A stretch of DNA of 41,984 nt from an uncultured Gammaproteobacteria bacterium (GCA_964636045.1 CAZWRH010000003.1:1-41984); one strand, 5' to 3'; counted from the stretch's first letter, positions 5,559 to 41,984 are shown. The notes: a model not told the origin generated them from the sequence alone. A program made the numbers and translations.

Positions 5559-5568
5559 ATATGTAAAT

Positions 5569-5829
5569 ATGGAAGATGCTATAGGAGATAAAATTAACGT
5601 TATAACAATTTTTAATTGGGAAAAACAAACCGTTATTCCATATAAAATTACTTGGCAAAAAAGAGAATATTTTATTAAAAAATTAAATTATTATTTTAAA
5701 CAAAGAGAGAATGGCATCATTATTCATAACTTCTATGTAAACGATGGACAGTTAGATTTCTATCTAAAATTTAATTCTGATAGTCTAAATTGGACACTTC
5801 AACATATTTATGATGGATCTTCCAATTAA
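5569..5829 (+). CDS. hypothetical protein (86 aa) between lexA and the Y-family polymerase
   Basis: The ORF starts 10 nt after the lexA stop. Its last 20 nt overlap the longest dinB ORF. No motif recognised. Confidence 0.5.
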   Translation: MEDAIGDKINVITIFNWEKQTVIPYKITWQKREYFIKKLNYYFKQRENGIIIHNFYVNDGQLDFYLKFNSDSLNWTLQHIYDGSSN

Positions 5830-7036
5830 TTCAAATAAACCTTTAATAATGCATATAGATATCAATTCTTGCTTTGCTACTGTTTTACAGCAAGCTTATC
5901 AAAACTTAAGAAATAAACCATTAGTCATTGCAGCATATACTTCTCCCGGAGGGTGTATTTTAGCCTCTTCAATTGAAGCTAAGAAATTAGGAATTAAAAC
6001 TGGAATGAAAGTCTATGAAGCACAAAGTATTTATAAAAATATAATAATAAAAACTACAGAAGTTGAACTTATTAATAACTTTCATTCTCAATTTATAAAG
6101 ATATTGCAAAAACATTGCTGTGAAGTAATTCCTAAATCGATAGATGAGGCGATCTTAGATTTTTCTAATCTAGCAGACAATGAAAAAATAAATATGGTTG
6201 AAATAGCTAAAAAAATAAAACTAGATATTAAAAATAATATTGGAGAATGGATCTCTTGTAGTGTTGGAATAGGAACAAATCGTTTTTTAGCAAAAACAGC
6301 AGCTTCTTTTAAAAAACCAAATGGATTAACTATTATTGATAGTAATAATGTAAAAACAATATATTCTCAACTTAAATTATTAGATTTGTATGGTATTAAT
6401 AAACAACTAGCTTGTAGATTACAAATGAATAAGATAAAAACTCCCTTAGATTTTTTAGCTTCCAATATTTTTTGCTTACAAAAAAAAGTATTTAAAAGCA
6501 TTAATGGTTTTTATTGGTATAAAAGACTACGTGGTTGGGAAATAGACAATGTAAAATCCGATAGAAAAAGTTTTGGTCAACAATATGCCCTTCCTAAAGC
6601 TACTAGCGATAAATTTGAAGTTGAAAATATCATATTAAAATTAACAGAAAAAATGAGTCATCGTCTAAGAAATGCTGGATTTTATACAAAAGGAATTTCT
6701 GTCTCATTTTTATATAAAGATTACTCTTCTTTTCAAAAAAACCACTTAACAAACAAAGCTATTTATAATACTTTAGATATTTTTAAAGAATTGATATATC
6801 TTTATAATAAATCTCCTCAAAAACCAATTATTAAAATATCAGTTTCTTGTTTTGGATTGCAAAATATTAAAAATTTTCAAATGGATCTTTTTAACGACCT
6901 ATCTAAACAAAAAAATATTACAGATATTGTTGATTCTATTAATAATAAATATGGAGAACTTACTGTTTTTCCTTGTTCAATAAAAGATATAAATAAAAAA
7001 ATTATCAACCGAATTGGATTTGGTCGGATTAATTAG
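5810..7036 (+). CDS. dinB: Y-family DNA polymerase (DinB/Pol IV-like, ImpB/MucB/SamB family)
   Basis: IMHIDINSCFATV (equivalent to HVDMDAFFASVE) and SIDEAILD (catalytic D-E) are present, followed by GIGTNRFLAKTAS. An alternative start at Met14 (5849) would remove the overlap with the upstream ORF and give a canonical N-terminus. Confidence 0.85.
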   Translation: MMDLPINSNKPLIMHIDINSCFATVLQQAYQNLRNKPLVIAAYTSPGGCILASSIEAKKLGIKTGMKVYEAQSIYKNIIIKTTEVELINNFHSQFIKILQKHCCEVIPKSIDEAILDFSNLADNEKINMVEIAKKIKLDIKNNIGEWISCSVGIGTNRFLAKTAASFKKPNGLTIIDSNNVKTIYSQLKLLDLYGINKQLACRLQMNKIKTPLDFLASNIFCLQKKVFKSINGFYWYKRLRGWEIDNVKSDRKSFGQQYALPKATSDKFEVENIILKLTEKMSHRLRNAGFYTKGISVSFLYKDYSSFQKNHLTNKAIYNTLDIFKELIYLYNKSPQKPIIKISVSCFGLQNIKNFQMDLFNDLSKQKNITDIVDSINNKYGELTVFPCSIKDINKKIINRIGFGRIN

Positions 7037-7039
7037 TTT

Positions 7040-7261
7040 TTATTTAGGCATGACTTCTCTTCCCTCTTCATTAATATTTTGATTAGGAACTATTGGTTTT
7101 TCTAATTTATTATTCTCTTTAATTTGCATAAATCCTTCTGACATCATAGTATTTAGTTTCATTTGATTTCTATATATTAAATATTGACCTATTAAAACCA
7201 ATACAATCAAAATACCCATAATACCCATACATTTCGGACAACATTCACATGTTTTTTTCAT
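7040..7261 (-). CDS. small membrane protein with N-terminal Cys cluster (hypothetical)
   Basis: 73 aa. MKKTCECCPKCMG is followed by one TM helix (IMGILIVLVLIGQYLIY). A strong SD, AGGAGGTG (plus coordinates 7269-7276), lies 7 nt upstream of the ATG. Confidence 0.55.
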   Translation of the reverse strand: MKKTCECCPKCMGIMGILIVLVLIGQYLIYRNQMKLNTMMSEGFMQIKENNKLEKPIVPNQNINEEGREVMPK

Positions 7262-7314
7262 ATATTCTCACCTCCTTTTTTATACCTATATTTATTATAT
7301 AAAATAAATAATAA

Positions 7315-7524
7315 ATGAAAAATAAAATCTTAATATTTTTAACAATTGCTGTTTTCGGAGTTATTTGTTTTTATCTTGGAAAAATATCTAATACTAAAAA
7401 TAACAATATTAATGAAGTTGTATCTCCTGGTATAAAAGCCTGCACTATGGAGGCAAAAATTTGTCCTGATGGATCGTCAGTTGGTAGATCAGGCCCAAAT
7501 TGTGAATTTGCTCCTTGCCCCTAA
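7315..7524 (+). CDS. small membrane-anchored/secreted Cys-rich protein (hypothetical)
   Basis: 69 aa. An N-terminal hydrophobic anchor is followed by a C-terminal 4-Cys motif, CTMEAKICPDGSSVGRSGPNCEFAPCP. I recall this motif from many small CPR proteins. Confidence 0.5.
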   Translation: MKNKILIFLTIAVFGVICFYLGKISNTKNNNINEVVSPGIKACTMEAKICPDGSSVGRSGPNCEFAPCP

Positions 7525-7574
7525 AAGACTCTTCTTAAATATCCTTCTCTTTGTTTTATAATATGTAAATATTT

Positions 7575-8027
7575 ATGGAAAAGATATTAAATAAAAAAAG
7601 TTATAGAGATTATGAAATTATTGATAAAATTGAGGCTGGAATTATCTTAACAGGACCTGAGGTTAAATCTATTAGAGAAGGAAGAATAAGATTAGAGGAT
7701 GCATATGTCAAAATAACAGAGAATGATATTATTTTAATTAATGCAGATATTGCTCCATATAAGTTTAGTAATGATAAAAATTTTGATTCAAAAAGAATTC
7801 GTAAACTACTTTTAAATAAAAAAGAAATATTAAAATTAAGAACTAAAATGAACGCTAAGGGTAATTTGACAATCATTCCTTTAGCTTGTTATAATAAGAA
7901 GAACATAATAAAAATTGAAATAGGACTTGCAAGAGGAAAAAAGAATTGGGAAGTAAAAAAAGTAGAACAAAATAGAGATGAAAAACGAAGAGAAGAAAAA
8001 GAATTTAAAGAATATTACAAATCTTAA
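7575..8027 (+). CDS. smpB: SsrA-binding protein SmpB
   Basis: 150 aa. The sequence NKKSYRDYEIIDKIEAGIILTGPEVKSIR...YVKI...LINADIAPY is typical of SmpB, with a basic C-terminal tail. The gene is immediately followed by tmRNA. Confidence 0.9.
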   Translation: MEKILNKKSYRDYEIIDKIEAGIILTGPEVKSIREGRIRLEDAYVKITENDIILINADIAPYKFSNDKNFDSKRIRKLLLNKKEILKLRTKMNAKGNLTIIPLACYNKKNIIKIEIGLARGKKNWEVKKVEQNRDEKRREEKEFKEYYKS

Positions 8028-8031
8028 AATT

Positions 8032-8451
8032 GGGGATGAACGGTTTCGACGTAAAGAATTGCTCTTTTAAAAATCGCTAGATCGCAACTGTGCGCAAACA
8101 GTAAAATATAAATGCAGATGCTGAACAAGCAGAAGCAGCTTTCTATGCAAGAAATGCAAACTATGCATTTTTAACAGCATAAAGAGCTATTTCCTTTTAG
8201 GAAACGTCTTATTAAATTTTTTCTCATGTTAAATTTATTAAGGCGACAACCAACATGAGATAGAGATAAAAAAAGTTACAAGCTGATTTCTTTTTTTATT
8301 TCAAAATACACTTTAGTAAGTGAAAAAATCATTGCCATAATTTTTTATTTATTGGTTTTAAAAAATTATGTATTTAAACCATTTATTTCTAGCTAAAGAT
8401 TTTTTTAAGTAGCCTTTATGGACTCCGGTTCAATTCCGGACATCTCCACCA
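8032..8451 (+). ncRNA. ssrA: tmRNA (ssrA), one-piece
   Basis: The 5' end GGGGATGAACGGTTTCGACG pairs with the 3' end CATCTCCACCA, giving an acceptor stem with a G3-U pair and an encoded CCA. A T-arm CCGGTTCAATTCCGG is present. An internal frame is open from 8105 to TAA at 8180-8182. A possible resume codon, GCA at 8114, gives ADAEQAEAAFYARNANYAFLTA. The resume position is a guess. Confidence 0.9.
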
Positions 8452-21502: not shown

Positions 21503-23266
21503 ATGTTATCTAATTTATTTAGTCCAAAAAAACCAAATCAAAAAAATGAAGAAATAAATGTTAAAAGTAATGCTGGTGAAATACTAGCAAAAGGAATGAC
21601 TTCTGTAAAAGATTTAATAGCACCTTCTTATATTGAAGTTGATTTTAATCATTTAAAAATCGATGATAAATTTTATAGAACTTTATTTGTGGTTGGTTAT
21701 CCAAGATTTGTGTCATCTAATTGGCTATATTCTTTAATTACTTTTGATCACCCCTTATACATTTCTATGTTTATTTATCCAAATGAATCTAAAGAAATAC
21801 TTCACGATTTGAAAAGAAAAATTGCTGAAATGCAAGCAACTATAGAAAACGATATGAAGTCTGGTAAAGTTGTTGATCCATCTGTTCAGGTCGCGCTTGA
21901 TGATGCGCTAACTCTTCAATCGGAACTTGCACAAGGAGCGGAAAAGTTTTTTCAATTTGGTTTATATGTAACAATTCCTGCAGATTCTTTAGAAGAACTA
22001 AACCAAATTACTAAAGAAGTTGATTCAACACTTTCATCCTTACTTATTATTGCAAAAACAGCAACTTTAGAAATGGAAGAAGGTTTTAAATCAACTCTTC
22101 CAATGTTTTATGACAGAATGGGCGTTTGGAGAAATATGGACACTTCATCACTCGCCATGACCTTTCCTTTTTCAACAGCATCTTTAACTGCAAATGAAGG
22201 GATTTTATATGGATTAAATCAACATGATGGGAGTTTGGTTATTTTTGACAGATTTACTCTTGAAAATTCAAACAGTGTTATTTTAGGTAAATCTGGAGGA
22301 GGAAAAAGTTTCTTTGTAAAACTTGAGGCTCTTAGGCTTTTAATGATGGATACTGAGGTTATTATTATTGATCCAGAAAATGAGTATAAAAAAATTGCAG
22401 AAACTGTTGGTGGAGAATTTGTTTCTTTTTCTATAACATCAGATTATAAAATCAACCCTTTTGCTTTAAATTCATATAACAACGAACCAGATGAATTTTC
22501 TAATAAAGTATTAGGCCTTCATTCTTTGATGAAAATAATTATGGGAGATCTTACACCAACTCAAGATGCATTACTTGATAGATCGTTAGTTATGACTTAT
22601 AAACAAAAAGGTATAAATCAAGATCCAAAAACTTTTAATAATGAACCTCCTCTTCTTGAAGATTTATATAAGATACTTCTTGGAATAGAAAGTCCTGAAG
22701 CTGCAGAACTTGCCGCAAGACTTGAGAAATTTATTAAAGGATCAGCTTCTGGAATATTTAATCAACAATCAAATTTTGATATTAAAAATAGTTTTACTGT
22801 TTTTGGTGTTAGAGATATTGAAGACAATCTAAGACCAATAGCTATGTATATAATTTTAGATTATATCTGGAATAGGGTTAGAAAAGATAAAAAAAAGAGA
22901 GTTTTAATTGTTGATGAGGCATGGTATTTAATTAAAAACAAAGACTCTGCTTCTTATTTATATTCTTTTGCAAAAAGAGCAAGAAAATATATGCTTGGAT
23001 TAACAACAATAACACAAGACGTTGAAGATTTCTTAAACACCGAAGAAGGAAAATCTATAATTACAAATTCTAGTTTACAAATCCTTCTTAAACAATCAAC
23101 CGCAGCAATAGAAAAAATTTCTGAAGTATTTAATTTGACTGGTGGTGAAAAACATTTTTTATTATCAGGTGAAGTTGGTGAAGGTTTGTTTTTTGCTGGA
23201 CAATCGCATGTTGCAATTAAAATAATTGCGTGTGAAGAAGAATATAAAACAATAACTAATTCCTAA
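21503..23266 (+). CDS. VirB4/TraC-like type IV secretion ATPase (DUF87/AAA-10-like)
   Basis: 587 aa. N-terminal IAPSYIEVDFNHLKIDDKFYRTLFVVGYPRFV, Walker A GKSGGGKSF, Walker B VLIVDEAW, then TTITQDVEDF. Confidence 0.8.
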   Translation: MLSNLFSPKKPNQKNEEINVKSNAGEILAKGMTSVKDLIAPSYIEVDFNHLKIDDKFYRTLFVVGYPRFVSSNWLYSLITFDHPLYISMFIYPNESKEILHDLKRKIAEMQATIENDMKSGKVVDPSVQVALDDALTLQSELAQGAEKFFQFGLYVTIPADSLEELNQITKEVDSTLSSLLIIAKTATLEMEEGFKSTLPMFYDRMGVWRNMDTSSLAMTFPFSTASLTANEGILYGLNQHDGSLVIFDRFTLENSNSVILGKSGGGKSFFVKLEALRLLMMDTEVIIIDPENEYKKIAETVGGEFVSFSITSDYKINPFALNSYNNEPDEFSNKVLGLHSLMKIIMGDLTPTQDALLDRSLVMTYKQKGINQDPKTFNNEPPLLEDLYKILLGIESPEAAELAARLEKFIKGSASGIFNQQSNFDIKNSFTVFGVRDIEDNLRPIAMYIILDYIWNRVRKDKKKRVLIVDEAWYLIKNKDSASYLYSFAKRARKYMLGLTTITQDVEDFLNTEEGKSIITNSSLQILLKQSTAAIEKISEVFNLTGGEKHFLLSGEVGEGLFFAGQSHVAIKIIACEEEYKTITNS

Positions 23267-30003: not shown

Positions 30004-30582
30004 ATGAATTACCCAGTAGTTCTCGATGTTGAAACAAAACATACTTTTAAAGAGTTTTCTGATACTAAAAAATTAGGAATTTCTGTGGCATGTATTTATG
30101 ATTTTAAAGACAATAAATTAAAAAGTTTTCTTGAATCAGAGTTGTCGCAACTATTTTCTATTTTAGAAAACTCATCATTAATAATTGGATTTAATGTTGT
30201 AAGTTTTGATTTACAAGTTCTCCAAGGATATTATCCAGGGAAAATGACTCAATTTAAAACTTTTGATATTTTAGAAGATATAAGAGAAATTATCGGAAGA
30301 AGGCTTTCTTTAAACGATTTAGTATCGGCAACGCTTGGAAAGAAAAAATCCGGTCACGGTCTTCATGCTATTGAACTTTATAAAGAAGGCAAATTTGAAG
30401 AATTAAAAAACTATTGTTTTGACGATGTTATTTTAACCAAAGAATTGTTTGATTTTGGCTTAAAAAAGAATGAAATATATTATATGGACTATACAGGTAA
30501 AAGAACCATTGAGGTTAGTTGGAAAAAACATTTAAACACCAATAATCAAAAAAAAGAAATTGCCTTAACTTTACCTTTTTAA
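30004..30582 (+). CDS. RNase H-fold 3'-5' exonuclease (DEDD-type, PolB-exonuclease-like)
   Basis: 192 aa. VVLDVETK (DxE), IIGFNVVSFDLQVL (D) and HGLHAIELY...YCFDDVILT (H...D) give the DEDD pattern. Confidence 0.65.
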   Translation: MNYPVVLDVETKHTFKEFSDTKKLGISVACIYDFKDNKLKSFLESELSQLFSILENSSLIIGFNVVSFDLQVLQGYYPGKMTQFKTFDILEDIREIIGRRLSLNDLVSATLGKKKSGHGLHAIELYKEGKFEELKNYCFDDVILTKELFDFGLKKNEIYYMDYTGKRTIEVSWKKHLNTNNQKKEIALTLPF

Positions 30583-31667
30583 TAAGAGGAGTCAAATAGG
30601 GTAACACTCTTTCTTTTTGTTTTTAATCTTCCAAGTGCATTTAAATATGATCTTTCAAACTCTGCAAGTCTTTCAGGTGAGTAGTTGTTTCTATTTCCAT
30701 AATAAAAAGTATTTAAAAATTTTGGAAAACTTATTTGAGATTGGTCTATTAAAATTGATCCATCTTTAATACAGTAGGATTGGTTGTAGTAAATAAATCT
30801 AACAATATAATAATCCCATAATTTATTTACTATTTTTTCTCCAACATGATTTGGATCATAAATTAATTTACCTCCAATTAACGCCTCAGGAAAAAAACCT
30901 TTGAAATGTATATTTTGATCAGTAAAAAAATTTAAAACTTTATCTCCTGGTTTTGGCGTTGGTTTTTTTTCACCAGTAAAAGACGTTCTAATTTCACTTT
31001 TTGGACTTATTGGAGAAATTCTTTTTATATGTTCATTTTTTTTATGAATATTAAACCCATCTTGTAAACCAAATAAATGAAATTCTACCTCAATAGCGTT
31101 GGTGGTCATGGAATATAATCTAGACAACCCTTTTCCATTTTTTATTATTGGTTTTAGATTGTCAAAAGGACCAAGTTCTTCAGAAAAAATAAATCCTTTA
31201 TCTTTTAATCCTTTTATAATATTAATTTCTCTATCAATATCTTTAATATTATTTTTTTGTGGAAGAATAGATATAAGGTCAATATCAGAATGTGTTCCAT
31301 TAATTTTTCCATTTGCATAAGAACCAAAAGTAAACAAAATTGATTCAGACCCATTCATAGCCAAATGTTCAACTAATTGATTAAGTTTTTGATCAAGGTT
31401 ATTTGCATGTTCTTCTATAGACTCTGATTTACTAAATTTCTTATTAAAATAAGTTTTAAAAACATCTTTTCTAATCTTGTCTAAAGATTCACTTTCTATC
31501 ATAGGAGATGGTATTTGTATTTCACTACATATATTTCCTATTTCAGATATATTAGAAACCGCAAGTCTTGATCTTAAATTAAAAAGTTGAGTAATGTCTT
31601 CGGGTTTAATAGGATCGGTTGAAAAAGGGAGCTCTTGTCTTCTTTGATTATGTTCTATATTGGTCAT
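30579..31667 (-). CDS. Pol-beta-superfamily nucleotidyltransferase, paralog A (OAS/CD-NTase-like core motif)
   Basis: 362 aa. The motif FTFGSYANGKINGTHSDIDLISIL (GS-x10-DxD) follows a helical N-terminal region. A candidate third acidic residue lies in IEVEFHLFG. It is a paralog of 33027..34121. Confidence 0.6.
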   Translation of the reverse strand: MTNIEHNQRRQELPFSTDPIKPEDITQLFNLRSRLAVSNISEIGNICSEIQIPSPMIESESLDKIRKDVFKTYFNKKFSKSESIEEHANNLDQKLNQLVEHLAMNGSESILFTFGSYANGKINGTHSDIDLISILPQKNNIKDIDREINIIKGLKDKGFIFSEELGPFDNLKPIIKNGKGLSRLYSMTTNAIEVEFHLFGLQDGFNIHKKNEHIKRISPISPKSEIRTSFTGEKKPTPKPGDKVLNFFTDQNIHFKGFFPEALIGGKLIYDPNHVGEKIVNKLWDYYIVRFIYYNQSYCIKDGSILIDQSQISFPKFLNTFYYGNRNNYSPERLAEFERSYLNALGRLKTKRKSVTLFDSSY

Positions 31668-31719: not shown

Positions 31720-32985
31720 TTAAAAATAAATAAGAGGAATTTCCATTTCCTCAGGAGTTAATCCACCGTGATGACCGTTGAATTTAAATTCAAATACTCC
31801 TTTTTTATACCACCAAACAGATTCATTTTTATAGGGTAGGATAACTAAGTTTCCAACTCTTTTTAAAAACTTTTTTGTGATTTTTTTTGGATCTCCAAAT
31901 ATTCCTTCCTTAATTAGTTCGCGAGTTTTATAAACCTCTGCTTTACCGACTAATTTTTTTCTTAAAAAGTACAGGACTTTATTTAAATATTCATTTTTAA
32001 TATGTAGAAAAAAATCACGTGGTGAGCCAACTGGAACAATATATTTTCCATCCTTATCTGTTTTTAAGTATTTTAATATGCTCGGATATTTTTTATTTAA
32101 ATAAATTCCAGATTTTTTATTAAGTGCAACTTGACCATGATCGGCTGTAATCATTATTGTTGTATTTTTTAAGTCTATTTTATCTAAAAAATTAGTTTCA
32201 AAATTATTAAAAAAATTTAGAATCTCTTGTTTTACAAATTCAGAATCAGGTCCATATTCATGAGACATAGCATCGATGCTATCAAAATAAAAATAACAAA
32301 ATTTTTTACTAGAAGAATCATTTAAAATGTTGGTCAATTTTAATAATCCTTGAGTTAAAGTTTCAAAAGGCATTTGTTTACTACCAAATAATATTCTATT
32401 AGAATATGCATTATTGCAAATTTTGCTACTTTGAAATGCAAAAGAATCAATGTTTTGTTTTTTTAAATTTAAATAAAATTTATTTTTTGGAATAATATTT
32501 GCGAATTTTCTATTTATTTTTAATAATTCATCTCTATTCATTTTTTCACCTGTTATTGTCATGAGAATAGGAGAAATTACTTTATTAACTTTTGATTCAA
32601 AATAATTCCATTCATAAAGACAATGCTCTGGGGTGGTTAGATTTGTTGTTATTGTGGTGATTTCATTTGTGGTGGTTGATGGAAATTGAGAAGTTAGTTT
32701 TGAAATTATTCCTTGTTTTTCAATTTTTTTAAAAATAGGATGTTCATTTTTCATTTTTTCAAAAAAAGACCAACCAAATCCATCAATTACAAATAGAACA
32801 ACATTTTTAATGTCTTTTTTTTTGTTAAAAACGTCTTCTGAAAAGATATCTTTATTTTTTTTATTAGTTAAAAGGTGCTCAGCGGTATTTAATATTTTTG
32901 TAAAAGAATATTTATTTGATGGTTTTAAAAAATATTTAGAGAATTTGTTTTTATTTATTTCTTGAATAGAGATTTGGTTAATCAT
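31720..32985 (-). CDS. alkaline-phosphatase-superfamily enzyme, type I phosphodiesterase/nucleotide pyrophosphatase (NPP)-like
   Basis: 421 aa. The motifs are VVLFVIDGFGWSFF (metal Asp), QFPSTTTNE (Ser/Thr nucleophile region), YFYFDSIDAMSHEYGPDS (the D..D..H..GP motif), ITADHGQ and NGHHGGLTPEEMEIPLI. Confidence 0.65.
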   Translation of the reverse strand: MINQISIQEINKNKFSKYFLKPSNKYSFTKILNTAEHLLTNKKNKDIFSEDVFNKKKDIKNVVLFVIDGFGWSFFEKMKNEHPIFKKIEKQGIISKLTSQFPSTTTNEITTITTNLTTPEHCLYEWNYFESKVNKVISPILMTITGEKMNRDELLKINRKFANIIPKNKFYLNLKKQNIDSFAFQSSKICNNAYSNRILFGSKQMPFETLTQGLLKLTNILNDSSSKKFCYFYFDSIDAMSHEYGPDSEFVKQEILNFFNNFETNFLDKIDLKNTTIMITADHGQVALNKKSGIYLNKKYPSILKYLKTDKDGKYIVPVGSPRDFFLHIKNEYLNKVLYFLRKKLVGKAEVYKTRELIKEGIFGDPKKITKKFLKRVGNLVILPYKNESVWWYKKGVFEFKFNGHHGGLTPEEMEIPLIYF

Positions 32986-33026: not shown

Positions 33027-34121
33027 TTATTCTATTTTTAGATTATGGCTTGATGCAAGTCTACTTAGATGAAGGTAATAATGTCTTTCAAGCTCAGCTA
33101 ATCTTTGAGGAGAATAATCTTCTTTTTTGAAATGATATAAAGTATTTAAAAATTTTTCAAAATTAATTTTTTCAAAATTAATAATTCTATTTCTCTTATC
33201 ATATGCACAATTAAAATAAATAAATCTTTTTAAAATAGTCATCCATAATTTTTCTCTAATTTTTTCACCAACAAGATTTTTATCGTAAATTATATCTCCA
33301 GTTGCAACATTATCTGTAAAAAAACCTTTATACATCTCTCCATCTTCTTCAACAAAATTTTGAACACAATTAGTTGGTTTGATTAATCCTTTTCTTTCTC
33401 CAGTGAATGAAATTCTAATCTCTACTTTTGGAGATGTTGGAGCAACTCTTTCTATAGATTTTCTTCTTAAATTTAGGGAGTGTGCGTCATCTATGCCAAT
33501 TAAATGGTATTCAGTTTCTAAACCTTCTTCAGTCATAGAATATAACCTTGTCAAGCCTTTTCCAGTTTTTAATATTGGTTTTAAGTTTTCAAAAGGACCA
33601 AGTTCTTCAGAAAAAACAAACCCTCTTTCTTTTAAAGACTCAATTTTATAAATTTCTTCATTTACTTCATCATCAGTTTTCATTTTTGGTAATATGACAA
33701 TAAAATCGATATCAGAATGAGGGCTGCTAATTTTTCCATTTGCAAAAGATCCAAAAGTTATAAAGATTGAGTTTGATTGGTTAAATGTAAAATGTTTTAT
33801 TAACTCATTTAGAGAGTTATTTAATTTAGTTTCATGTTCCTTAATGTCTTGAGAGGTTGGAAAATTTTGTTCAAAATAACTATTGAAAATTTGTTTTTTT
33901 ATTTTTTGATTTATTTCTGGTTCATTTGGAGATGAAATGTTAAATTGATCACAAATATCTATAAGAGAATCAATGTCTTCAGCTCCCCAAATAGCAGTTC
34001 TAACATTAAAGAGTTGTGTTACTTTGTTTTGGGTAATATTGGTTGCTTGAGGTTTTTTTTCAGACTTATAAATTACATTTCCTGATTGTTCAGTAGTTTG
34101 AGGTATGGGTCGTCTTTCCAT
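33027..34121 (-). CDS. Pol-beta-superfamily nucleotidyltransferase, paralog B
   Basis: 364 aa. ITFGSFANGKISSPHSDIDFIVIL and LETEYHLIG. By eye, roughly half of the aligned core positions are identical to paralog A. A 28-nt stretch is identical at DNA level (33589-33616 versus 31162-31189). Confidence 0.6.
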   Translation of the reverse strand: MERRPIPQTTEQSGNVIYKSEKKPQATNITQNKVTQLFNVRTAIWGAEDIDSLIDICDQFNISSPNEPEINQKIKKQIFNSYFEQNFPTSQDIKEHETKLNNSLNELIKHFTFNQSNSIFITFGSFANGKISSPHSDIDFIVILPKMKTDDEVNEEIYKIESLKERGFVFSEELGPFENLKPILKTGKGLTRLYSMTEEGLETEYHLIGIDDAHSLNLRRKSIERVAPTSPKVEIRISFTGERKGLIKPTNCVQNFVEEDGEMYKGFFTDNVATGDIIYDKNLVGEKIREKLWMTILKRFIYFNCAYDKRNRIINFEKINFEKFLNTLYHFKKEDYSPQRLAELERHYYLHLSRLASSHNLKIE

Positions 34122-35158: not shown

Positions 35159-35321
35159 TCAATATTTGTTCAACTTTTTTTTAGTGTTTTTATTTTTTTT
35201 GAAACTATTCTTTTTTTTAAGCATAAAAAAATAACTTGATATATTTTAATATCATTTAGACCGCTTGACATCGTATAAGTGGTGTATTACATTTTTTATT
35301 GACACTAAATATATTAAAAAT

Positions 35322-35768
35322 ATGAAATGTATATTTTGTTCAGATTCTAATACAGATGTAGTTGAGACAAGAGTTTCTGATGATGGATCAACCATAAGAA
35401 GAAGAAGAGAGTGTGGAAAATGTCAAAAAAGATTTACAACATATGAAAGAGTTGAACAGTTACCAATAATAGTTATAAAAAATGATGGAAGAAGGGAAAG
35501 ATTTGATAGAGATAAATTAAAAAAAGGAATATTTATATCAACTGGAAAAACAAGCATTACACTTGATCAAGTTGAAAAAATAGTTTCAGAAGTTGAGACA
35601 GAACTTAAGCAGGAAGATAAGATGGAAATAGAAAGTAAAATGATTGGAAATTTAGTTGCCAAAAAACTAAAAAAAATTGATAAAATTGCCTACATTAGGT
35701 TTGCATCAGTTTTTAAAAAGTTTGTAGATCTTGAAGATTTTGAACAGGAACTTAAAAAATTATTATAA
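35322..35768 (+). CDS. nrdR: transcriptional repressor NrdR
   Basis: The start is taken at MKCIFCSDSNTDVVETRVSDDGSTIRRRRECGKCQKRFTTYERVE, a canonical zinc ribbon, followed by an ATP-cone. The track ORF begins upstream at a TTG at 35265. Confidence 0.9.
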   Translation: MKCIFCSDSNTDVVETRVSDDGSTIRRRRECGKCQKRFTTYERVEQLPIIVIKNDGRRERFDRDKLKKGIFISTGKTSITLDQVEKIVSEVETELKQEDKMEIESKMIGNLVAKKLKKIDKIAYIRFASVFKKFVDLEDFEQELKKLL

Positions 35769-35780
35769 AATTAAAATCCT

Positions 35781-38159
35781 ATGAAATTAACAGGAATCAG
35801 AGAAAAGGTTTTTTTGGATAGATACTCATTAAAAGATAAAAAAGGAAATCCAATTGAGAAGAATCCTGAAAAAATGTGGAGAAGAGTAGCAAAAGGAATA
35901 GCTATGGTTGAGAAAAGAGATCTTCAACGAAAATATGAAAAAGAATTCTATGAACTTCAAAAAGATTTTAAATTTATAGCGGGTGGAAGAATTTTATCTG
36001 GCGCTGGAACAGGATACGAAGTTACTTATTACAATTGTTTTGTTATTCCATCCCCTAAAGATTCAAGAGGTGGTATTTTAGATACTTTAAAACACATGGT
36101 TGAAATTATGGCTCGTGGTGGTGGTGTTGGATTTAATATCTCAACTTTAAGACCACGTGGTGCAAGAGTTAAAAAAGTAAATGGATCATCTTCGGGTCCA
36201 ATTAATTGGGCAGAACTTTTTTCAGTTGCAACAAAAGATATTATTCAACAAGGCGGTACAAGAAGAGGAGCTTTAATGTTAATGCTTCATGATTGGCATC
36301 CAGATATTGAAGAATTTATTACAGTAAAACAAGATCATAGCAAAATAAATGGTGCAAATTTATCTGTTGCAATATCTGATGCTTTTATGAACGCTGTTGA
36401 GAAAGATTTGGATTGGGAATTGGTTTTTCCAGATGTTACAGATGAGGATTATGACAAACTTTGGACAGGAGATATTAATGAATGGAAAAGTCATGGCAAA
36501 AAAGTAGTTGTTTACAAAACTGTAAAAGCCAGAAAGATTTGGGATTTAATTGCTGAAGCAGCATGGAAAAGCGCTGAGCCAGGGGTTGTGTTTTTAGAAA
36601 GATACAATAAATATTCTAATAATTGGTATTTTGAAAGATTAAATTGTGTTAATCCATGTGGAGAACAAGGTCTTCCTGATTGGGGTGTTTGTAATTTAGG
36701 ATCTCTTAATTTAGCCGCTTTTGTTAAGTCTGGAAATATGGATTTTAAAAAGCTCTATGATGCATCAAAAATTGCTATTAGATTTTTGGATAATGTAATT
36801 GATGCAAGTTATTATTTTTACGATTCAATTAAAGAAACTCAACTTGATAGACGAAGAACTGGACTTGGAACAATGGGACTCGCTGATGCTTTAATAAAAA
36901 TGAAAATTAGATATGGAAGTCCAAATTCTTTAAAAGTAATTGAAAAAATTTATAAAACAATTAGAGATGCAGCTTATGAGGCTTCAATAGACCTTGCAAA
37001 AGAAAAAGGAACTTTTGAAAAACTCGATAAAGAAAAGTTTTTAAAAAGTGAATTTGTTAAAGATTTACCTGAAAAAATTAAAGAAAGAATTAGTAAACAT
37101 GGAATTAGAAACTCTGTTTTATTGACTCAAGCACCAACAGGATCAACTTCTTTATTAACAGGAGTGTCTTCAGGTATTGAACCAGTATTTGAATTTGTTT
37201 TTATAAGACATGATAGACTTGGAGAACATAAAATTTATCATCCTCTTTATGAAGAATGGATTAAAAAAACTAAAAATTTAAAAAATAGTAACTTAATTAA
37301 GAAGCCTGATTATTTTGTGTCTGCGTCAGAACTTACACCTGAAGAACATGTTAGAGTTCAAGGAATGATTCAAAAATATACTGACTCTTCTATTTCAAAA
37401 ACAGTTAATGCTCCAAACGATCATAAAGTTGATGATGTAAAAAATATCTATACTTTAGCTTATAAACTTGGATGTAAAGGTTTAACTTATTTTAGAGACG
37501 GCTCAAGAAGTGGAGTTTTAGAAAAGGAAACTACTGTAAAAAAAGATGCTATAGCAACAACAAAGCAAGAAGTAAAGCCAACATTTGCTATTAAACCACG
37601 ACCAATGGTAGTTCATGGTTCAACATATAGAATTAATACTCCAGTTGGAGCAGCATTTATCACAATTAATACTAATGGGGGCATGGAGCCTTTAGAAGTA
37701 TTTATTAATGTTGGTAAAGCAGGAAGTGATGTTTACGCTATGGCAGAGGGACTTGGAAGAATGATTTCTTTAGCTCTTAGGTTCTCATCTCATCTTTCTC
37801 CAACAGAAAGAATAAAAGAAGTAGCCAATCAATTATCTGATATTGGAGGAGCAAGGGTTATGGGTTTTGGAAAAGACAGAATTAGAAGTCTTCCTGATGC
37901 AATTGCTAAAGTTTTATCTACTCACTATAGTATAAATGGTCAAATGGCACCAAAGATGCTTGAGGCAGAAAAAGAAATAAAAACAGAGATTAATCAAGTA
38001 TCAACAACAACTCAAGAAACTTTGCCAATACAACAAAACATTGAAAGTCCAAAAAAAACAGGAAAAAATTTTGATATTTGTCCAAAATGTGGTGAAGCAA
38101 CTTTAGTTTATGAAGAAGGTTGTAAAAAATGCTATAACTGTGGAAATTCTGAGTGTTAA
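35781..38159 (+). CDS. nrdJ: adenosylcobalamin-dependent (class II) ribonucleotide reductase
   Basis: 792 aa. NPCGEQGLPDWGVCNLGSLNL active-site region, SKTVNAP, and a C-terminal 4-Cys ribbon CPKCGEATLVYEEGCKKCYNCG. Confidence 0.9.
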   Translation: MKLTGIREKVFLDRYSLKDKKGNPIEKNPEKMWRRVAKGIAMVEKRDLQRKYEKEFYELQKDFKFIAGGRILSGAGTGYEVTYYNCFVIPSPKDSRGGILDTLKHMVEIMARGGGVGFNISTLRPRGARVKKVNGSSSGPINWAELFSVATKDIIQQGGTRRGALMLMLHDWHPDIEEFITVKQDHSKINGANLSVAISDAFMNAVEKDLDWELVFPDVTDEDYDKLWTGDINEWKSHGKKVVVYKTVKARKIWDLIAEAAWKSAEPGVVFLERYNKYSNNWYFERLNCVNPCGEQGLPDWGVCNLGSLNLAAFVKSGNMDFKKLYDASKIAIRFLDNVIDASYYFYDSIKETQLDRRRTGLGTMGLADALIKMKIRYGSPNSLKVIEKIYKTIRDAAYEASIDLAKEKGTFEKLDKEKFLKSEFVKDLPEKIKERISKHGIRNSVLLTQAPTGSTSLLTGVSSGIEPVFEFVFIRHDRLGEHKIYHPLYEEWIKKTKNLKNSNLIKKPDYFVSASELTPEEHVRVQGMIQKYTDSSISKTVNAPNDHKVDDVKNIYTLAYKLGCKGLTYFRDGSRSGVLEKETTVKKDAIATTKQEVKPTFAIKPRPMVVHGSTYRINTPVGAAFITINTNGGMEPLEVFINVGKAGSDVYAMAEGLGRMISLALRFSSHLSPTERIKEVANQLSDIGGARVMGFGKDRIRSLPDAIAKVLSTHYSINGQMAPKMLEAEKEIKTEINQVSTTTQETLPIQQNIESPKKTGKNFDICPKCGEATLVYEEGCKKCYNCGNSEC

Positions 38160-38167
38160 TTAGCTTT

Positions 38168-38641
38168 ATGAAAATATATACAAAGACTGGTGATACAGGA
38201 TCAACTTCTTTGATTGGTAGACGAGTTTTAAAAACTAATTCTATTATTGAACTGAATGGAAATATTGATGAGTTAAGCGCTTTCATTAGTCTTACTATTT
38301 TAAACATTAAAAACAAAAGCAATATTGATTTATTAAAAGATATTCAAACTGACTTTATACAAATAATGAGTTATATTGCTGGCAAAAAAGACAGTAGTAT
38401 TGATTTTGATAAAAAGATAAATAAATTTGAACAAATGATTGATTTATTATCTTCTAAAAAAGATAAACCAAATCGTTTTATTCTAGTTAAAAATAACAAT
38501 TTAAGTGTTTATTTTAATTTATTAAGAACTATTACAAGAAGAGTGGAAAGAAGAGTAATTTTAAGTTTTAAAAAAGATAAAAAATTAATTAGCTATTTTA
38601 ATAGGTTGTCCGATTTGTTTTTTACTATGTCTTATGTTTAA
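38168..38641 (+). CDS. pduO: ATP:cob(I)alamin adenosyltransferase, PduO-type
   Basis: The start is at MKIYTKTGDTGSTSL, the family N-terminal signature. Later, RFILVKNN...RTITRRVERR corresponds to the FILPGG...ARTVCRRAER region but is divergent. Confidence 0.75.
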   Translation: MKIYTKTGDTGSTSLIGRRVLKTNSIIELNGNIDELSAFISLTILNIKNKSNIDLLKDIQTDFIQIMSYIAGKKDSSIDFDKKINKFEQMIDLLSSKKDKPNRFILVKNNNLSVYFNLLRTITRRVERRVILSFKKDKKLISYFNRLSDLFFTMSYV

Positions 38642-39173
38642 ACAAAATATTAAAAATAGAGCAGCTTTTATTTCTACTTTAGTATTAATATTGACAGGTA
38701 TTTTTTCAAGATTTATTCCTCATCCGCCTAACTTTACTCCAATAAATTCAATTACCTTATTTTCTTCAAGTAAATTTTCTAAGAAAATAACAATCTTTAT
38801 TCCTTTAGTAATAATGTTTATTTCTGATCTTGTCTTAGGACTCCATTTAACAATGATTTTTGTTTATTTAAGCTTAATAATTATTTATTTAATTGGTTTT
38901 TATTTTAAAAAAATAATTAATCAATATAATTTGTTTTTATTTAGCTTTGTTTCCTCAATAATCTTCTTTTTAATAACCAATTTTGGAGTTTGGATGTTAT
39001 TTAATATGTATCCTCATAATTTGTCAGGACTTGTAAGTTGCTATTATATGGCAATTCCATTTTTTAAAAATACTTTAATTGGAGACTTGATTTATAATTA
39101 CTTGTTTTATTATAGTTTTAGATTTTTAAATAATTATTTTTTGAAGAAAATCAATAATTGGGGAATGCTGTGA
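38634..39173 (+). CDS. small polytopic membrane protein (about 5-6 TM; DUF6580-like by recollection), candidate B12-related transporter component
   Basis: 179 aa. RFIPHPPNFTPINSITLF N-terminal motif. The size and topology resemble ECF S-components or solitary vitamin transporters. The gene overlaps the pduO end by 8 nt. Confidence 0.5.
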   Translation: MFKQNIKNRAAFISTLVLILTGIFSRFIPHPPNFTPINSITLFSSSKFSKKITIFIPLVIMFISDLVLGLHLTMIFVYLSLIIIYLIGFYFKKIINQYNLFLFSFVSSIIFFLITNFGVWMLFNMYPHNLSGLVSCYYMAIPFFKNTLIGDLIYNYLFYYSFRFLNNYFLKKINNWGML

Positions 39174-39245
39174 GATTCAGCAACTGTGCCGCAACGGTAG
39201 AAAAGTCCGGATGCCAATTATTTAATAATGTCCTCGAGCTAAGGA
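39153..39245 (+). promoter_or_regulatory. cobalamin riboswitch, compact class-II / AdoCbl-variant-like aptamer plus RBS hairpin
   Basis: P1 is a 9-bp helix, AAUAAUUGG (39153-39161) paired with CCAAUUAUU (39214-39222). The conserved GGGAA is at 39161-39165. A hairpin UGCUG-UGAGAUU-CAGCA spans 39066+100, that is 39166-39182. GCCGCAACGGUA corresponds to the conserved CCCGCNACUGUA, and a B12-box-like AAGUCCGGAUGCC is at 39203-39215. Downstream, the hairpin UCCU-CGAGCUA-AGGA (39231-39245) contains the SD AAGGA, 7 nt before the ATG at 39252. Confidence 0.85.
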
Positions 39246-39251
39246 AAATAT

Positions 39252-40406
39252 ATGAAAGAACAATTACCTTCTCTAAAATCAGAAAATCAAAAAAATTCTA
39301 TTTTTGATTTCTATTCAATAGAAAATGAGATAAGTTTCATAGAAAAAAACGGGTCCTTATCTTTTGAGGATAAAAATTATTATTTAAAAGAAAGTGTTTT
39401 AAGATTTTTAGGTGAATTTGCTGGCAAAATTCCTTATACGAAAATTTCGTATTTTCAAGAGAATGATCAGAAATTATATTCAAAAGGGTTAAAAAAATCA
39501 GCTTCTGAGATATATAAAGAAAACGCAGAAAAACAAGGCAAAAATTCAAGAGAAGAAGCAGACTATATTGGATTCAGTAAAATTGAAAAAGCTTTTATAA
39601 ATGGGTCAAATTTTGCATACTGGATATCTCCTCCATCAAATGAAGAAGGTTTTGGAGATTATGGATTTGCTTTTATCTTAATAAAAAATAATAAAAAAAT
39701 TGATGAATATATCGTTAGATATGATGAAAAAAGAGGGAGTCTTGATGAGAGCAACAAATTAATTGAAGGAAAAACAATGCAATCAGCGCTTGATTTTTTA
39801 AAAAACCCTTTTTTTTCTTTTGAAGAAGATGCTAATCAAAGTTTTCAATGGTTATTAAATAAAAAATTAAATTTTAGTAGTGAACTGATTTATAAATCTA
39901 AAGTTTTTGAGGAAGTGATTAATCAAGAGCTCTCTTCATGGATTGATTTATACTCAAAAGCAATTAACAAAAAAGACATATTCAGTGCAAAAAAGATATT
40001 AACTGCTATTTATAATAGGGCTGTTGAAATAAACAACAATATTGAAAATTATATTTTTACAAAACAGGAAATAAATATTAATCAAAAAAATAAATTAACC
40101 TATTTAAACGAACATTTATTATTGAATGAATATTCAAAAAAACATGCATATGTTTTTGGAGGAGGAAGTTGTCCAACATCATCAAATGAATCGTTAAATA
40201 TGTTTGCAAGTGGAATAAATTATCAAACCGCCAGTTTAATAACAGGAAAAATTGAAGAAAGTAATAAAAAATGGGAATACCACACCGGTAATTGTGTTTG
40301 TTGTGGTGCTAAAAATACTGAAGTTGGACCATGTAAAGTATGTAAAAAATGTGAGAAAAAATTTAATAAAGATGAATTAAATACTTATTTTAAAAAAGCT
40401 GCTTAG
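39252..40406 (+). CDS. hypothetical protein (384 aa) with C-terminal 4-Cys zinc-ribbon; first gene behind the cobalamin riboswitch
   Basis: No signal peptide or TM is visible. The C-terminus is HTGNCVCCGAKNTEVGPCKVCKKCEKKF. No family recognised. Confidence 0.55.
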   Translation: MKEQLPSLKSENQKNSIFDFYSIENEISFIEKNGSLSFEDKNYYLKESVLRFLGEFAGKIPYTKISYFQENDQKLYSKGLKKSASEIYKENAEKQGKNSREEADYIGFSKIEKAFINGSNFAYWISPPSNEEGFGDYGFAFILIKNNKKIDEYIVRYDEKRGSLDESNKLIEGKTMQSALDFLKNPFFSFEEDANQSFQWLLNKKLNFSSELIYKSKVFEEVINQELSSWIDLYSKAINKKDIFSAKKILTAIYNRAVEINNNIENYIFTKQEININQKNKLTYLNEHLLLNEYSKKHAYVFGGGSCPTSSNESLNMFASGINYQTASLITGKIEESNKKWEYHTGNCVCCGAKNTEVGPCKVCKKCEKKFNKDELNTYFKKAA

Positions 40407-40427
40407 TTTTTCTGATATCATAAATTT

Positions 40428-40841
40428 ATGGATAAAAATTTTAGCGATATAAGTGGTCTATTAAATTCTTCGATTGAAAAAGAAAAAAAACCAACCATTT
40501 CATTTCAAAAACCTGAGGAAAAAATTAATATTTTAAGTGATAAAGAGTTGAAAAATGAAGATAAGTTTTTTAAAAAAATTGATGAAGTTATAACTATTCA
40601 TCCAGCAAAACCAGATTTAAAACATTTAAATAATCATGGAGTAGAGAATCATCCAAATGATATGCCAGGAATTGTTTTTAATGTTTCTGATGAAGAAATA
40701 TTTAATAATTTAAAAGGCCCAACAGATTCTTCACAAACTTGGCTTGTTAATTTTTATAAATATTTAGCAGAAAAAACAAAAATAACATTTAAAAAAATAA
40801 AAGGAAAAATCCAAAGAGTTCCTATTAATTCCCTTGAATAA
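40428..40841 (+). CDS. hypothetical protein (137 aa), probably co-transcribed with 39252..40406
   Basis: The ORF starts 21 nt after the upstream stop. No motif recognised. Its 3' end overlaps the convergent trxA by 17 nt. Confidence 0.4.
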   Translation: MDKNFSDISGLLNSSIEKEKKPTISFQKPEEKINILSDKELKNEDKFFKKIDEVITIHPAKPDLKHLNNHGVENHPNDMPGIVFNVSDEEIFNNLKGPTDSSQTWLVNFYKYLAEKTKITFKKIKGKIQRVPINSLE

Positions 40842-41142
40842 TATTTACAATTGATTCTTCTGAAACAACACCAGTTAATTGATTTATTACTTGGCCGTTT
40901 TTGAAGAAAATAATTGTTGGGATTGAAAAAATATTGTAACTACCAGCAAGATCTTGATTTTGATCAACATCAACCTTAACAAATTTAGCACTAAGATTTT
41001 TGTCTTCTGAGAGTTTATCAATTATTGGACCAAGTATTTTACATGGGCCACACCAAGTAGCATAAAAATCAACAACTACAATTCCTGTGTTTTTAATTAC
41101 TTCTGTCTCAAAATTATTTGCATCAATGTGTTGTGCTGCCAT
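40825..41142 (-). CDS. trxA: thioredoxin
   Basis: 105 aa with the WCGPC active site in a canonical context (VVVDFYATWCGPCKILGPI). Confidence 0.95.
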   Translation of the reverse strand: MAAQHIDANNFETEVIKNTGIVVVDFYATWCGPCKILGPIIDKLSEDKNLSAKFVKVDVDQNQDLAGSYNIFSIPTIIFFKNGQVINQLTGVVSEESIVNIIQGN

Positions 41143-41223
41143 ATTTTTATATTTAAATTGATAAAGCCTATTTATACTAATAAAAAAATTTTAAAAATGC
41201 AATTATTGTTTTATAATTGAAAA

Positions 41224-41984
41224 ATGCAAAAAGCTGAAAGATTTAAAAACATTGATTTGTTAAGAGGAATATCTATTGTGGTTATGATCTTAACTCATAC
41301 TAATGCTTATTTTTGGGATAAATGGTCGTCTTTTGTTTGGAATTATTTACATTTTGCAGTTGCAACTTTTGTTTTTTGTTCAGGTTTTGTGCTTATTAGT
41401 AAATATAAATTTGAAAAATTAGACTACAAAAATTACTTGTCATTTATAAAAAAGAGATTTTTAAGACTACTCTTACCTTATTATATTTTTGTATTTTTTT
41501 ATTATTTGATGGTTTATATTCAAGTTAAAAAAATAGATTTTATTGATTTACAACAAGCAATTCTTGTTATAAGAGAACCAGATATTAGCTGGTTAGTTAA
41601 TTTATTTTTACAATTAACTATTTTTTTCCCAATATTTTCATTTTTATTTACAAAAGAAAGAAAAATATTTAATTGGATTTTTGGGGCAATAATTTTTGCT
41701 TCATTTTTAAAAATTTTTATTAATCCAAAAGTAGACTATAAATTAATTATGGTTTTTTTGTGGTTTGTCCCTTTTTTATTATCTTTTTATATTCAAGAAA
41801 ATTATAAAAATTTACAATTTAAAATTAGATTATTTTTAGTATTTATAACTATTCATATTTTGCTTTGGTTTTTATTAAATACAAATAATATGAATTTGGT
41901 CTATCAGAATAACAAATATCCACCAAATTTATATTATTTAACCTATGGAATTAGTTTTTTTATTTTTGCTGATATTATTTTTAC
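41224..41984 (+). CDS. acyltransferase-3 / DUF1624-like membrane protein, N-terminal part (continues beyond window end)
   Basis: Not in the ORF track. Manual translation from the ATG at 41224 gives MQKAERFKNIDLLRGISIVVMILTHTNAYFWDKWSSFVWNYLHFAVATFVFCSGFVLISK... The R..iDlLRG...vv..H start and polytopic character fit the OafA/HGSNAT-like family. Confidence 0.55.
   Translation, partial: MQKAERFKNIDLLRGISIVVMILTHTNAYFWDKWSSFVWNYLHFAVATFVFCSGFVLISKYKFEKLDYKNYLSFIKKRFLRLLLPYYIFVFFYYLMVYIQVKKIDFIDLQQAILVIREPDISWLVNLFLQLTIFFPIFSFLFTKERKIFNWIFGAIIFASFLKIFINPKVDYKLIMVFLWFVPFLLSFYIQENYKNLQFKIRLFLVFITIHILLWFLLNTNNMNLVYQNNKYPPNLYYLTYGISFFIFADIIF

Follow-up and report, generated by a model that had tools for sequence, protein, structure and literature searches.

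A class-II cobalamin riboswitch and the undescribed protein family encoded behind it

What does a cobalamin sensor control when the gene behind it belongs to no described family? The question is raised by a stretch of 41,984 nucleotides from an uncultured Gammaproteobacteria bacterium (GCA_964636045.1, CAZWRH010000003.1:1-41984; this whole stretch is hereafter the window), in which genes encoding the repressor NrdR, the B12-dependent ribonucleotide reductase (RNR) NrdJ, a PduO-type adenosyltransferase and a membrane protein of family DUF6580 are followed by a cobalamin riboswitch and by two genes encoding proteins of 384 and 137 amino acids, here named X and Y. The riboswitch is an ordinary class-II member; the new lead is X, which belongs to a previously undescribed protein family, outside the described B12 families and the solved folds searched. 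Candidate-phyla bacteria (Patescibacteria), to which the tiny source bacterium of the window is assigned here, have minimal genomes, depend on a B12-dependent reductase for DNA precursors and are unable to synthesise B12, whose acquisition and handling in these cells are, to our knowledge, hardly described. No literature was found on a cobalamin riboswitch or RNR of Patescibacteria or Microgenomates, or on an adenosyltransferase of the candidate phyla radiation (CPR). X, with or without Y, is a clonable candidate to fill a gap in the use or the sparing of B12.

The cobalamin aptamer and its expression platform

The leader and the two genes that follow it comprise these elements (MFE, minimum free energy):

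39142-39224, + strand: AdoCbl-II (RF01689) aptamer of the short class-II type, found with Rfam cmscan at the gathering threshold
39153-39161, + strand: 5' strand of P1, AAUAAUUGG, within the final codons of the DUF6580 gene, paired in the MFE and centroid folds
39160-39165, + strand: GGGGAA junction, read directly from the sequence
39166-39182, + strand: P4/L4 hairpin UGCUG-UGAGAUU-CAGCA, stem 39166-39170/39178-39182, with covariation in 3 of 5 pairs
39185-39193, + strand: P5/L5, UGU-GCC-GCA, with G39188-C-C-G39191 as the aptamer side of a kissing loop
39195-39209, + strand: P6, CGG/CCG, with the B12-box core AGUCC (39204-39208) and without P6 extension, from the Rfam alignment
39214-39222, + strand: 3' strand of P1, CCAAUUAUU, a perfect 9-bp complement of 39153-39161 in the MFE and centroid folds
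39225-39230, + strand: single-stranded linker J1/13, 6 nt by sequence, similar in length to the linker of wild-type env8, which has 7 nt (PMC5028336)
39231-39245, + strand: regulatory hairpin P13/L13, stem U39231-U39234/A39242-A39245 (UCCU/AGGA), loop CGAGCUA, from the MFE fold
39241-39245, + strand: Shine-Dalgarno sequence (SD) AAGGA, in the 3' strand of the P13 hairpin, 6 nt before the ATG at 39252
39252-40406, + strand: X, a 384-aa cytosolic protein with an alpha/beta core, a helical bundle, a GGGSC307P loop and a C-terminal four-Cys zinc ribbon
40428-40841, + strand: Y, a Cys-free protein of 137 aa, probably mostly disordered, with a conserved C-terminal RWL...AHLTLKKxGGKVVRV

Three RNAs were recognised in the 42-kb window at Rfam gathering thresholds: a tmRNA, a tRNA and one member of the cobalamin clan, AdoCbl-II (RF01689, clan CL00101). 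The latter matched over the full model (positions 1-81 of 81) with 55.5 bits, against a gathering threshold of 36.5, and an E-value of 5e-11. A first-pass annotation made from the sequence alone had described at this place a perfect 9-bp P1, a GGGAA segment and the UGCUG-UGAGAUU-CAGCA hairpin, and had likened them to the short class-II type; sequence and MFE fold reproduce each of these parts, and the covariance-model search agrees on the type. P6 has 3 bp and a 9-nt loop in the window, and RF00174-type orthologs insert 16-100 nt exactly there. When 10 orthologous short aptamers were folded together with RNAalifold, compensatory double changes were observed in 12 of the 19 pairs of their common structure. 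The segment is a genuine class-II cobalamin aptamer of the short type; score, conserved core with covariation, absent P6 extension and the design of the L5-L13 contact and ribosome-binding site (RBS) all point to that class. The preference for aquo- or methyl-cobalamin that had been attached to this assignment is not implied by it: members of class II range from adenosylcobalamin (AdoCbl)- to methylcobalamin (MeCbl)-selective (PMC6158498), so that the form of the ligand cannot be read from the class.

The G+C content of the window is just 26% and the leader as a whole folds no better than shuffled sequences (z 0.93), as might be the case if the match were a chance resemblance or a decayed relic devoid of regulatory role. 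This explanation is effectively refuted by the E-value over the full model, by the covariation among orthologous aptamers and by the preservation of the regulatory hairpin in about 30 loci whose G+C content spans 26-54%.

The first-pass annotation had looked for an L5-L13 kissing loop by eye and not seen it. Complementarity is present: G39188-C-C-G39191 of L5 matches C39235-G and G-C39239 of L13, with A39237 unpaired between them, and it is kept in nearly all related loci. The L5 sequence CUGUGCCGCA[AG]C is almost invariant in about 30 loci, and in 23 of 26 a hairpin of the form C3-4/G N1-2 GCA/G3-4 precedes the X homolog's start codon by 3-11 nt, the remainder having CGAGC variants. The paired positions of L13 are fixed and the interrupting position is free, being occupied by A, C, U, AA, CA, UU or UC; the loop is CGAGCCA at locus L022, CGAGCUA at L028, and CGAGCA or CGCGCA in a second lineage of X (see below). 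At L009 both partners have changed in a compensatory manner, L5 carrying ACC instead of GCC and L13 CGGGU instead of CGNGC (GC to GU). The earlier proposal of translational control, based on an SD enclosed in a hairpin, is strengthened by the presence of that hairpin in the MFE fold and by the conserved L13 motif.

In env8 and related switches the L5-L13 kissing loop is interrupted by unpaired L13 nucleotides, the RBS lies in P13/L13 and J1/13 is short; bound cobalamin stabilises the docked state and prevents ribosome loading (PMC5028336). The platform in the window matches this established mechanism, and for this reason it is read as a conventional translational OFF switch. With env8HyCbl and class II (Johnson 2012, Polaski 2016) it shares a short four-way junction without P6 extension, and with env8 the interrupted L5-L13 loop, the RBS in P13, the short J1/13 and the translational OFF logic. 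Unlike env8, where two purines and an A-G pair interrupt L13, the window has a single interrupting nucleotide; formation of the uninterrupted 9-bp P1 would leave it with little or no J1/3; and the coding sequence of the gene before it takes up the 5' third of its aptamer. It further departs from known class-II switches in that the orthologous positions of relatives hold RF00174- or RF01482-type aptamers. The P13 stem of the window is weak (4 bp, 2 of them G-C), which weighs against the assignment. It is nevertheless very probable, judging from these sequence features, that the riboswitch is real and acts as an OFF switch on translation. A scan for terminators found no terminator-like site in 38000-41300, and transcriptional attenuation in the window was rejected because of this result.

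Protein X and its relatives behind cobalamin riboswitches

Thirty-five related loci were fetched, and the counts given here cover those with readable sequence upstream of X. Riboswitches of the Rfam cobalamin clan scoring at least the gathering threshold lie directly upstream of X in 27 loci, the window included (the others being L001-L012, L014-L019, L021-L024, L028, L029, L031 and L035). L013 scores below the threshold, at 28.3 bits, the riboswitches of L026 and L030 were recognised by eye, and L033 is truncated by its contig, leaving P13 alone visible. There is exactly one cobalamin riboswitch per locus, and no locus with readable upstream sequence is without one. Whether X homologs stand behind B12 riboswitches elsewhere had been named in the first-pass annotation as a point to check, and they do so without exception in about 30 loci. 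That X belongs to the B12 regulon is, on these observations, held with high confidence. Its occurrence behind a B12 sensor at every site examined is the type of signal that earlier led to BtuG, BtuH, CbrT and BtuM. Like X, those proteins (BtuG and BtuH being from Bacteroides) were unknowns flagged by cobalamin riboswitches or B12 loci, and they were later shown to bind B12 (PMC8941943, PMC6143338, PMC5997447). Unlike them, X is cytosolic and has both a zinc ribbon and a loop cysteine that is invariant, and it resembles none of them significantly in sequence or fold.

At most of these loci X is linked to nrdJ, and the gene order is nearly always nrdR-nrdJ-pduO-(DUF4430)-(DUF6580)-riboswitch-X-Y with a convergent thioredoxin gene. 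The X homologs concerned diverge to about 20% identity with the X of the window. L026 is without an adjacent thioredoxin gene, and in several genomes the replication genes dnaA/dnaN are near the locus. In some loci genes unrelated to B12, purine-biosynthesis-like, have joined the RNR cluster between pduO and the riboswitch: a PurF-like amidotransferase in L002 (6289-7833), and the same together with a formyltransferase-like gene in L004 (1965-4425), the PurF-like proteins being 514-544 aa long.

A second X subfamily (P0116, P0126, P0129, P0135 and P0140; 347-442 aa, ending ...ITKDEWA...ICD) belongs to a different lineage and has a different context. In its loci (L029, 5601-6756; L031, 6889-8086; L030; L033; and L035, 152-1665) X alone is under the riboswitch; nrdJ, pduO and Y are all missing from its vicinity, and its neighbours encode MreB, WecG, GalT-like and citrate-lyase-like proteins. 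Because this lineage lacks both the adjacency to nrdJ and Y, the conserved unit is the riboswitch plus X.

The first-pass annotation had placed two genes under the control of the switch. This holds for X, which is always behind it, and less so for Y, whose homologs (found with tblastn or as called ORFs) follow X at most nrdJ-linked loci with downstream sequence, all except L022, and are absent from the second lineage. Only X is conserved as the regulated unit, Y being lineage-specific. Y has a conserved N-terminal motif, NYTPIDDL, in addition to its C-terminal one; its middle is gap-rich, poorly conserved and, to judge from the sequence, probably disordered. It has no relative in Pfam, NCBIfam, PHROG, PADLOC or PDB.

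The aptamer position itself is orthologous across loci and is scored by three Rfam models, RF01689, RF00174 and RF01482, with a near-identical core and L5/L13 (examples are 39142-39224 in the window, 7745-7877 in L008, 7695-7889 in L005 and 7863-7995 in L028). The aptamers scored by the three models differ by the P6 extension and a 5' hairpin, an interconversion of class I and class II in situ for whose study this orthologous series with differing peripheral elements would be useful.

The two genes downstream are as first described, one encoding 384 aa with a C-terminal CxxC...CxxC ribbon and the other 137 aa, and the earlier remark that neither belongs to a known B12 family has withstood homology and structure searches. 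The B12 families considered were BtuB/BtuFCD, CbrT, BtuM, BtuG/H, cob/cbi, CblC-like, MetE and B12-independent RNRs. X matched nothing in Pfam, NCBIfam, PHROG or PADLOC, 56 diverse homologs contained no Pfam domain, and searches of PDB sequences with single sequences and with profiles returned generic zinc ribbons only. An exhaustive profile search gave a family of 423 clusters at 50% identity with E ≤1e-3, of which 128 had E ≤1e-30; a word-indexed search had been far too low, with 19 relatives for X and the query alone for Y. Family members range from 350 to 540 aa.

Six residues are invariant across the 56 diverse members, namely E55, S126, C307 (in a G-G-x-S-C-P loop), C348, C364 and C367, and four more, R100, G107, P186 and C351, are nearly so. 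C348/C351 and C364/C367 form the CxxC knuckles of the C-terminal zinc ribbon, whose profile matches the ribbons of eL43/L37Ae (E 9e-5) and which AlphaFold2 (AF2) models with two short strands. In most members, for example those of L002, L007, L012 and L031, the final residues, after the zinc ribbon, read ...TKEE[FW]A...C. A Cys lies within the final 1-4 residues in most of the family, and the lineage of the window is without it. Since X carries no transmembrane segment or signal peptide (0 in 158 members of the family), it is regarded as cytosolic, and a model of X as a surface B12 binder was rejected on this ground.

AF2 models of X reached a predicted local distance difference test (pLDDT) score of 78.6, and of 85.5 with a predicted template-modelling (TM) score (pTM) of 0.77 when a deeper alignment was used. 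They comprise an alpha/beta core, a helical bundle, a disordered segment (312-339) and the ribbon. Neither model gave a Foldseek match to PDB with E <0.1. The top match in both runs was BT_1490, a B12-binding protein of the BtuG1/BtuH type (PMC8941943), with an E-value of 0.1-0.16, a TM score of 0.10-0.14 and a probability of 0.12-0.14; because of so low a TM score, it was treated as coincidence and set aside as noise. Partial matches to PAS/GAF-like folds were likewise discarded as not significant (probability ≤0.57, TM score ≤0.48), and a derivation of X from NrdJ was rejected on an hhalign probability of 22%.

Upstream B12 genes and the possible role of X

The genes around the riboswitch and X are the following:

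35265-35768, + strand: NrdR repressor, with Pfam Zn_ribbon_NrdR and ATP-cone from residue 20
35781-38159, + strand: NrdJ, class II AdoCbl-dependent RNR, with the Pfam RNR barrel (E 8e-128), TSCPD and a C-terminal Cys-rich zinc ribbon
38153-38641, + strand: PduO-type ATP:cob(I)alamin adenosyltransferase (Pfam PF01923, E 1.4e-37)
38634-39173, + strand: DUF6580 membrane protein (Pfam PF20221, E 9e-45)
40825-41142, - strand: thioredoxin (Pfam PF00085, E 1.6e-30), its position kept in nearly all nrdJ-linked loci

The NrdR reading frame as listed starts at a TTG 18 codons before the zinc ribbon; translation probably begins instead at the ATG near 35319 (MKCIFC...). The convergent 3' ends of the Y and thioredoxin genes overlap by 17 nt (40825-40841), which leaves no room for terminators between them.

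The upstream membrane protein of the first-pass annotation can be described more closely. It belongs to DUF6580, a family on which no literature was found, and a profile of seven DUF6580 proteins from the loci matches chain A of PDB 6FNP over residues 5-123 with an E-value of 4.9e-6, a remote and partial similarity. As 6FNP is the vitamin B12 transporter ECF-CbrT of the energy-coupling factor (ECF) type (PMC5997447), this remote relationship makes DUF6580 a probable B12 importer. Like CbrT, it is a multi-pass membrane protein (about 180 aa, matched over its N-terminal 120 residues) paired with B12 genes. Unlike CbrT, it is placed in a separate Pfam family and lies outside riboswitch control, and a scan of 29 ORFs of the window revealed no ECF energising module (EcfA, EcfA', EcfT). 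In six loci (L008, L010, L011, L014, L018 and L021) a membrane-anchored DUF4430 protein (Pfam E 1.4e-20) is encoded between pduO and the DUF6580 gene, as in L008, where DUF4430 spans 6821-7216 and DUF6580 7216-7764. DUF4430 is a domain found at the C-terminus of transcobalamin (PMC4350170). Together with NrdJ, PduO and the likeness of DUF6580 to CbrT, its presence lets the upstream unit be read as one of B12 capture, import, adenosylation and use. DUF4430 and DUF6580 have the look of a so far unannotated pair for capturing and importing B12, under the control of NrdR, not of the riboswitch, which provides a functional lead for DUF6580 and for bacterial DUF4430.

Within this setting, bound cobalamin would bridge L5 (GCCG, 39188-39191) and L13 (CG-A-GC, 39235-39239), and the kissing loop would lock P13 and sequester the SD AAGGA, blocking translation of X and with it the expression of Y. 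When cobalamin is scarce, the loop would be undocked and X and Y would be made. X would then act inside the cell on the cobalamin supply, by capturing, retaining or chemically processing imported corrinoid, possibly by means of the invariant loop C307 and the zinc-ribbon tail, and corrinoid brought in by the CbrT-like DUF6580 protein, in some relatives also with the transcobalamin-like DUF4430 protein, would be passed from X to PduO and then to the B12-dependent NrdJ.

A direct handling of cobalamin by X is favoured because of its neighbours, its cytosolic location and its invariant loop cysteine, but it is proposed only tentatively, and the full picture of a riboswitch-controlled X that handles intracellular cobalamin, although the best explanation overall, falls somewhat short of even likelihood in our estimation. 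The role of X in B12 is assigned by guilt by association only. Several observations weigh against the proposal. Neither X nor Y has a homology or fold link to any corrinoid-binding or corrinoid-processing protein, and X lacks both a DxHxxG-type B12 motif and an invariant His. The zinc ribbon is equally compatible with the binding of nucleic acids or proteins. The putative importer genes, furthermore, escape the control of the switch, since they lie upstream of it, which is unusual for a B12-supply regulon.

This last trait would be more easily accommodated if X, with Y where it occurs, served a B12-sparing or bypass function, replacing or relieving a B12-dependent step, such as the supply of dNTPs for which NrdJ normally provides, when cobalamin is gone. 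B12-independent isozymes (metE, nrdAB and nrdDG in other bacteria) are under the control of cobalamin OFF switches, and the regulation proposed for X follows the same pattern. X comes directly after nrdJ-pduO in most loci, thioredoxin is its conserved neighbour, and the invariant E, S and C residues hint at catalysis. A Cys-rich C-terminal tail of class II RNRs is reportedly the subject of Loderer et al. 2017. The zinc ribbon and terminal Cys of most X proteins superficially resemble such a tail, and the NrdJ proteins of the same loci end in ...CKKCYxCGYSEC (38070-38159 in the window). The spacing in X is nevertheless different from that of the NrdJ tail, homology is not detectable (hhalign gives the low probability quoted above for X against NrdJ), and the X of the window has no terminal Cys; a thioredoxin-reducible or redox-shuttle tail in X is pure conjecture. 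The AF2 model, alpha/beta plus helical over proteins of 350-540 aa, is unlike the barrels of RNRs, neither Foldseek nor HMM searches found similarity of X to RNRs, kinases or other known enzymes, and X of the second lineage adjoins no B12-dependent gene. A bypass function is therefore considered unlikely.

The sole recognisable module of X, a zinc ribbon like that of ribosomal eL43 or TFIIB-like ribbons, could also belong to a regulatory or stress protein that slows replication or growth under B12 starvation and does not touch cobalamin. The weak PAS/GAF-like partial matches, the largely disordered and adaptor-like appearance of Y and the location of the locus near dnaA/dnaN in several genomes would fit such a protein. 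However, those partial matches are not significant, no DNA-binding or signalling domain was detected in X, and S126 and C307, which lie outside the ribbon, resemble an active or ligand site; this explanation is regarded as quite improbable.

Returning to the direct handling of cobalamin, X would be induced by B12 scarcity, would pull corrinoid from a solitary CbrT-like carrier and would hand it to PduO and NrdJ. That X is either a new class of cytosolic cobalamin-trafficking proteins (a thiol/zinc-ribbon trap or processor) or a B12-independent bypass of class II RNR is, taking both together, slightly favoured. If either is true, X would have an undescribed fold, would carry out an undescribed step of B12 metabolism in prokaryotes, and would be spread over hundreds of uncultured lineages.

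Overlap with the DUF6580 gene and other features of the window

The first-pass annotation had noted that the 5' part of the aptamer lies within the last codons of the upstream gene. This is indeed so: the DUF6580 reading frame ends ...NNWGML-TGA, and the P4 loop contains its stop codon (39171-39173). The frame thus takes in 32 nt of the aptamer, a case of an aptamer that partly codes for the preceding gene. The arrangement recurs in all 8 of the 8 loci that contain DUF6580, where the frame enters the aptamer by 20-73 nt and ends at the first internal stop codon. Overlapping segments include the following:

Window: 39142-39173
L001: 7905-7928
L008: 7745-7764
L010: 7662-7734
L014: 1940-1959
L018: 1222-1241
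L021: 1520-1589

The overlapping tail of DUF6580 looks incidental, because the Pfam domain ends before the overlap. Ribosomes finishing DUF6580 at 39171-39173 would melt P1 and P4 if both were on one mRNA.

The same annotation had called the switch operon-internal. The overlap of the reading frame with the aptamer is real, but the operon-internal position is not shown by it. X and Y could instead be transcribed from a promoter of their own in the 3' end of the DUF6580 gene, the overlap being a by-product. One candidate is the following:

39087-39116, + strand: promoter-like TTGATT-N18-TATAGT inside the DUF6580 gene, 26 nt upstream of the aptamer, with 9 of 12 matches

A promoter at this place would agree with the end of the DUF6580 Pfam domain about 11 residues before the stop, the overlapping tail not being conserved protein, and with the pduO-aptamer spacer of 39-400 nt in loci without DUF6580, which has room for a promoter; it would also spare P1/P4 from the ribosomes that, on a polycistronic mRNA, would unfold them on terminating. 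By contrast, promoter-like sites in this region of the window are not more numerous than in shuffled sequences, and promoter-like scores upstream of 21 aptamers are indistinguishable from the locus background (mean 7.8 vs 7.2 of 12), with the reservation that CPR promoter rules may differ. There is, moreover, no terminator between DUF6580 and the aptamer, and the overlapping or abutting nrdJ, pduO and DUF6580 genes suggest one long transcript. A separate promoter and a common transcript with the upstream genes are regarded as evenly balanced.

Elsewhere in the window, on the - strand, two paralogous proteins of about 363 aa with a nucleotidyltransferase fold flank a Phosphodiest/PglZ-like protein of 421 aa (30579-31667, 31720-32985 and 33027-34121), and L001 also has a similar Phosphodiest/PglZ gene. 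The regions 4992-7036 and 21503-23266 encode a LexA-like S24 peptidase, after which come a small ORF and then a polymerase of the Y family (IMS), in appearance an SOS-type cassette, and include a TraG/VirB4-like P-loop ATPase of 587 aa. At 7575-8451, smpB is directly followed by the tmRNA gene (RF00023, 70.6 bits), an ordinary arrangement.

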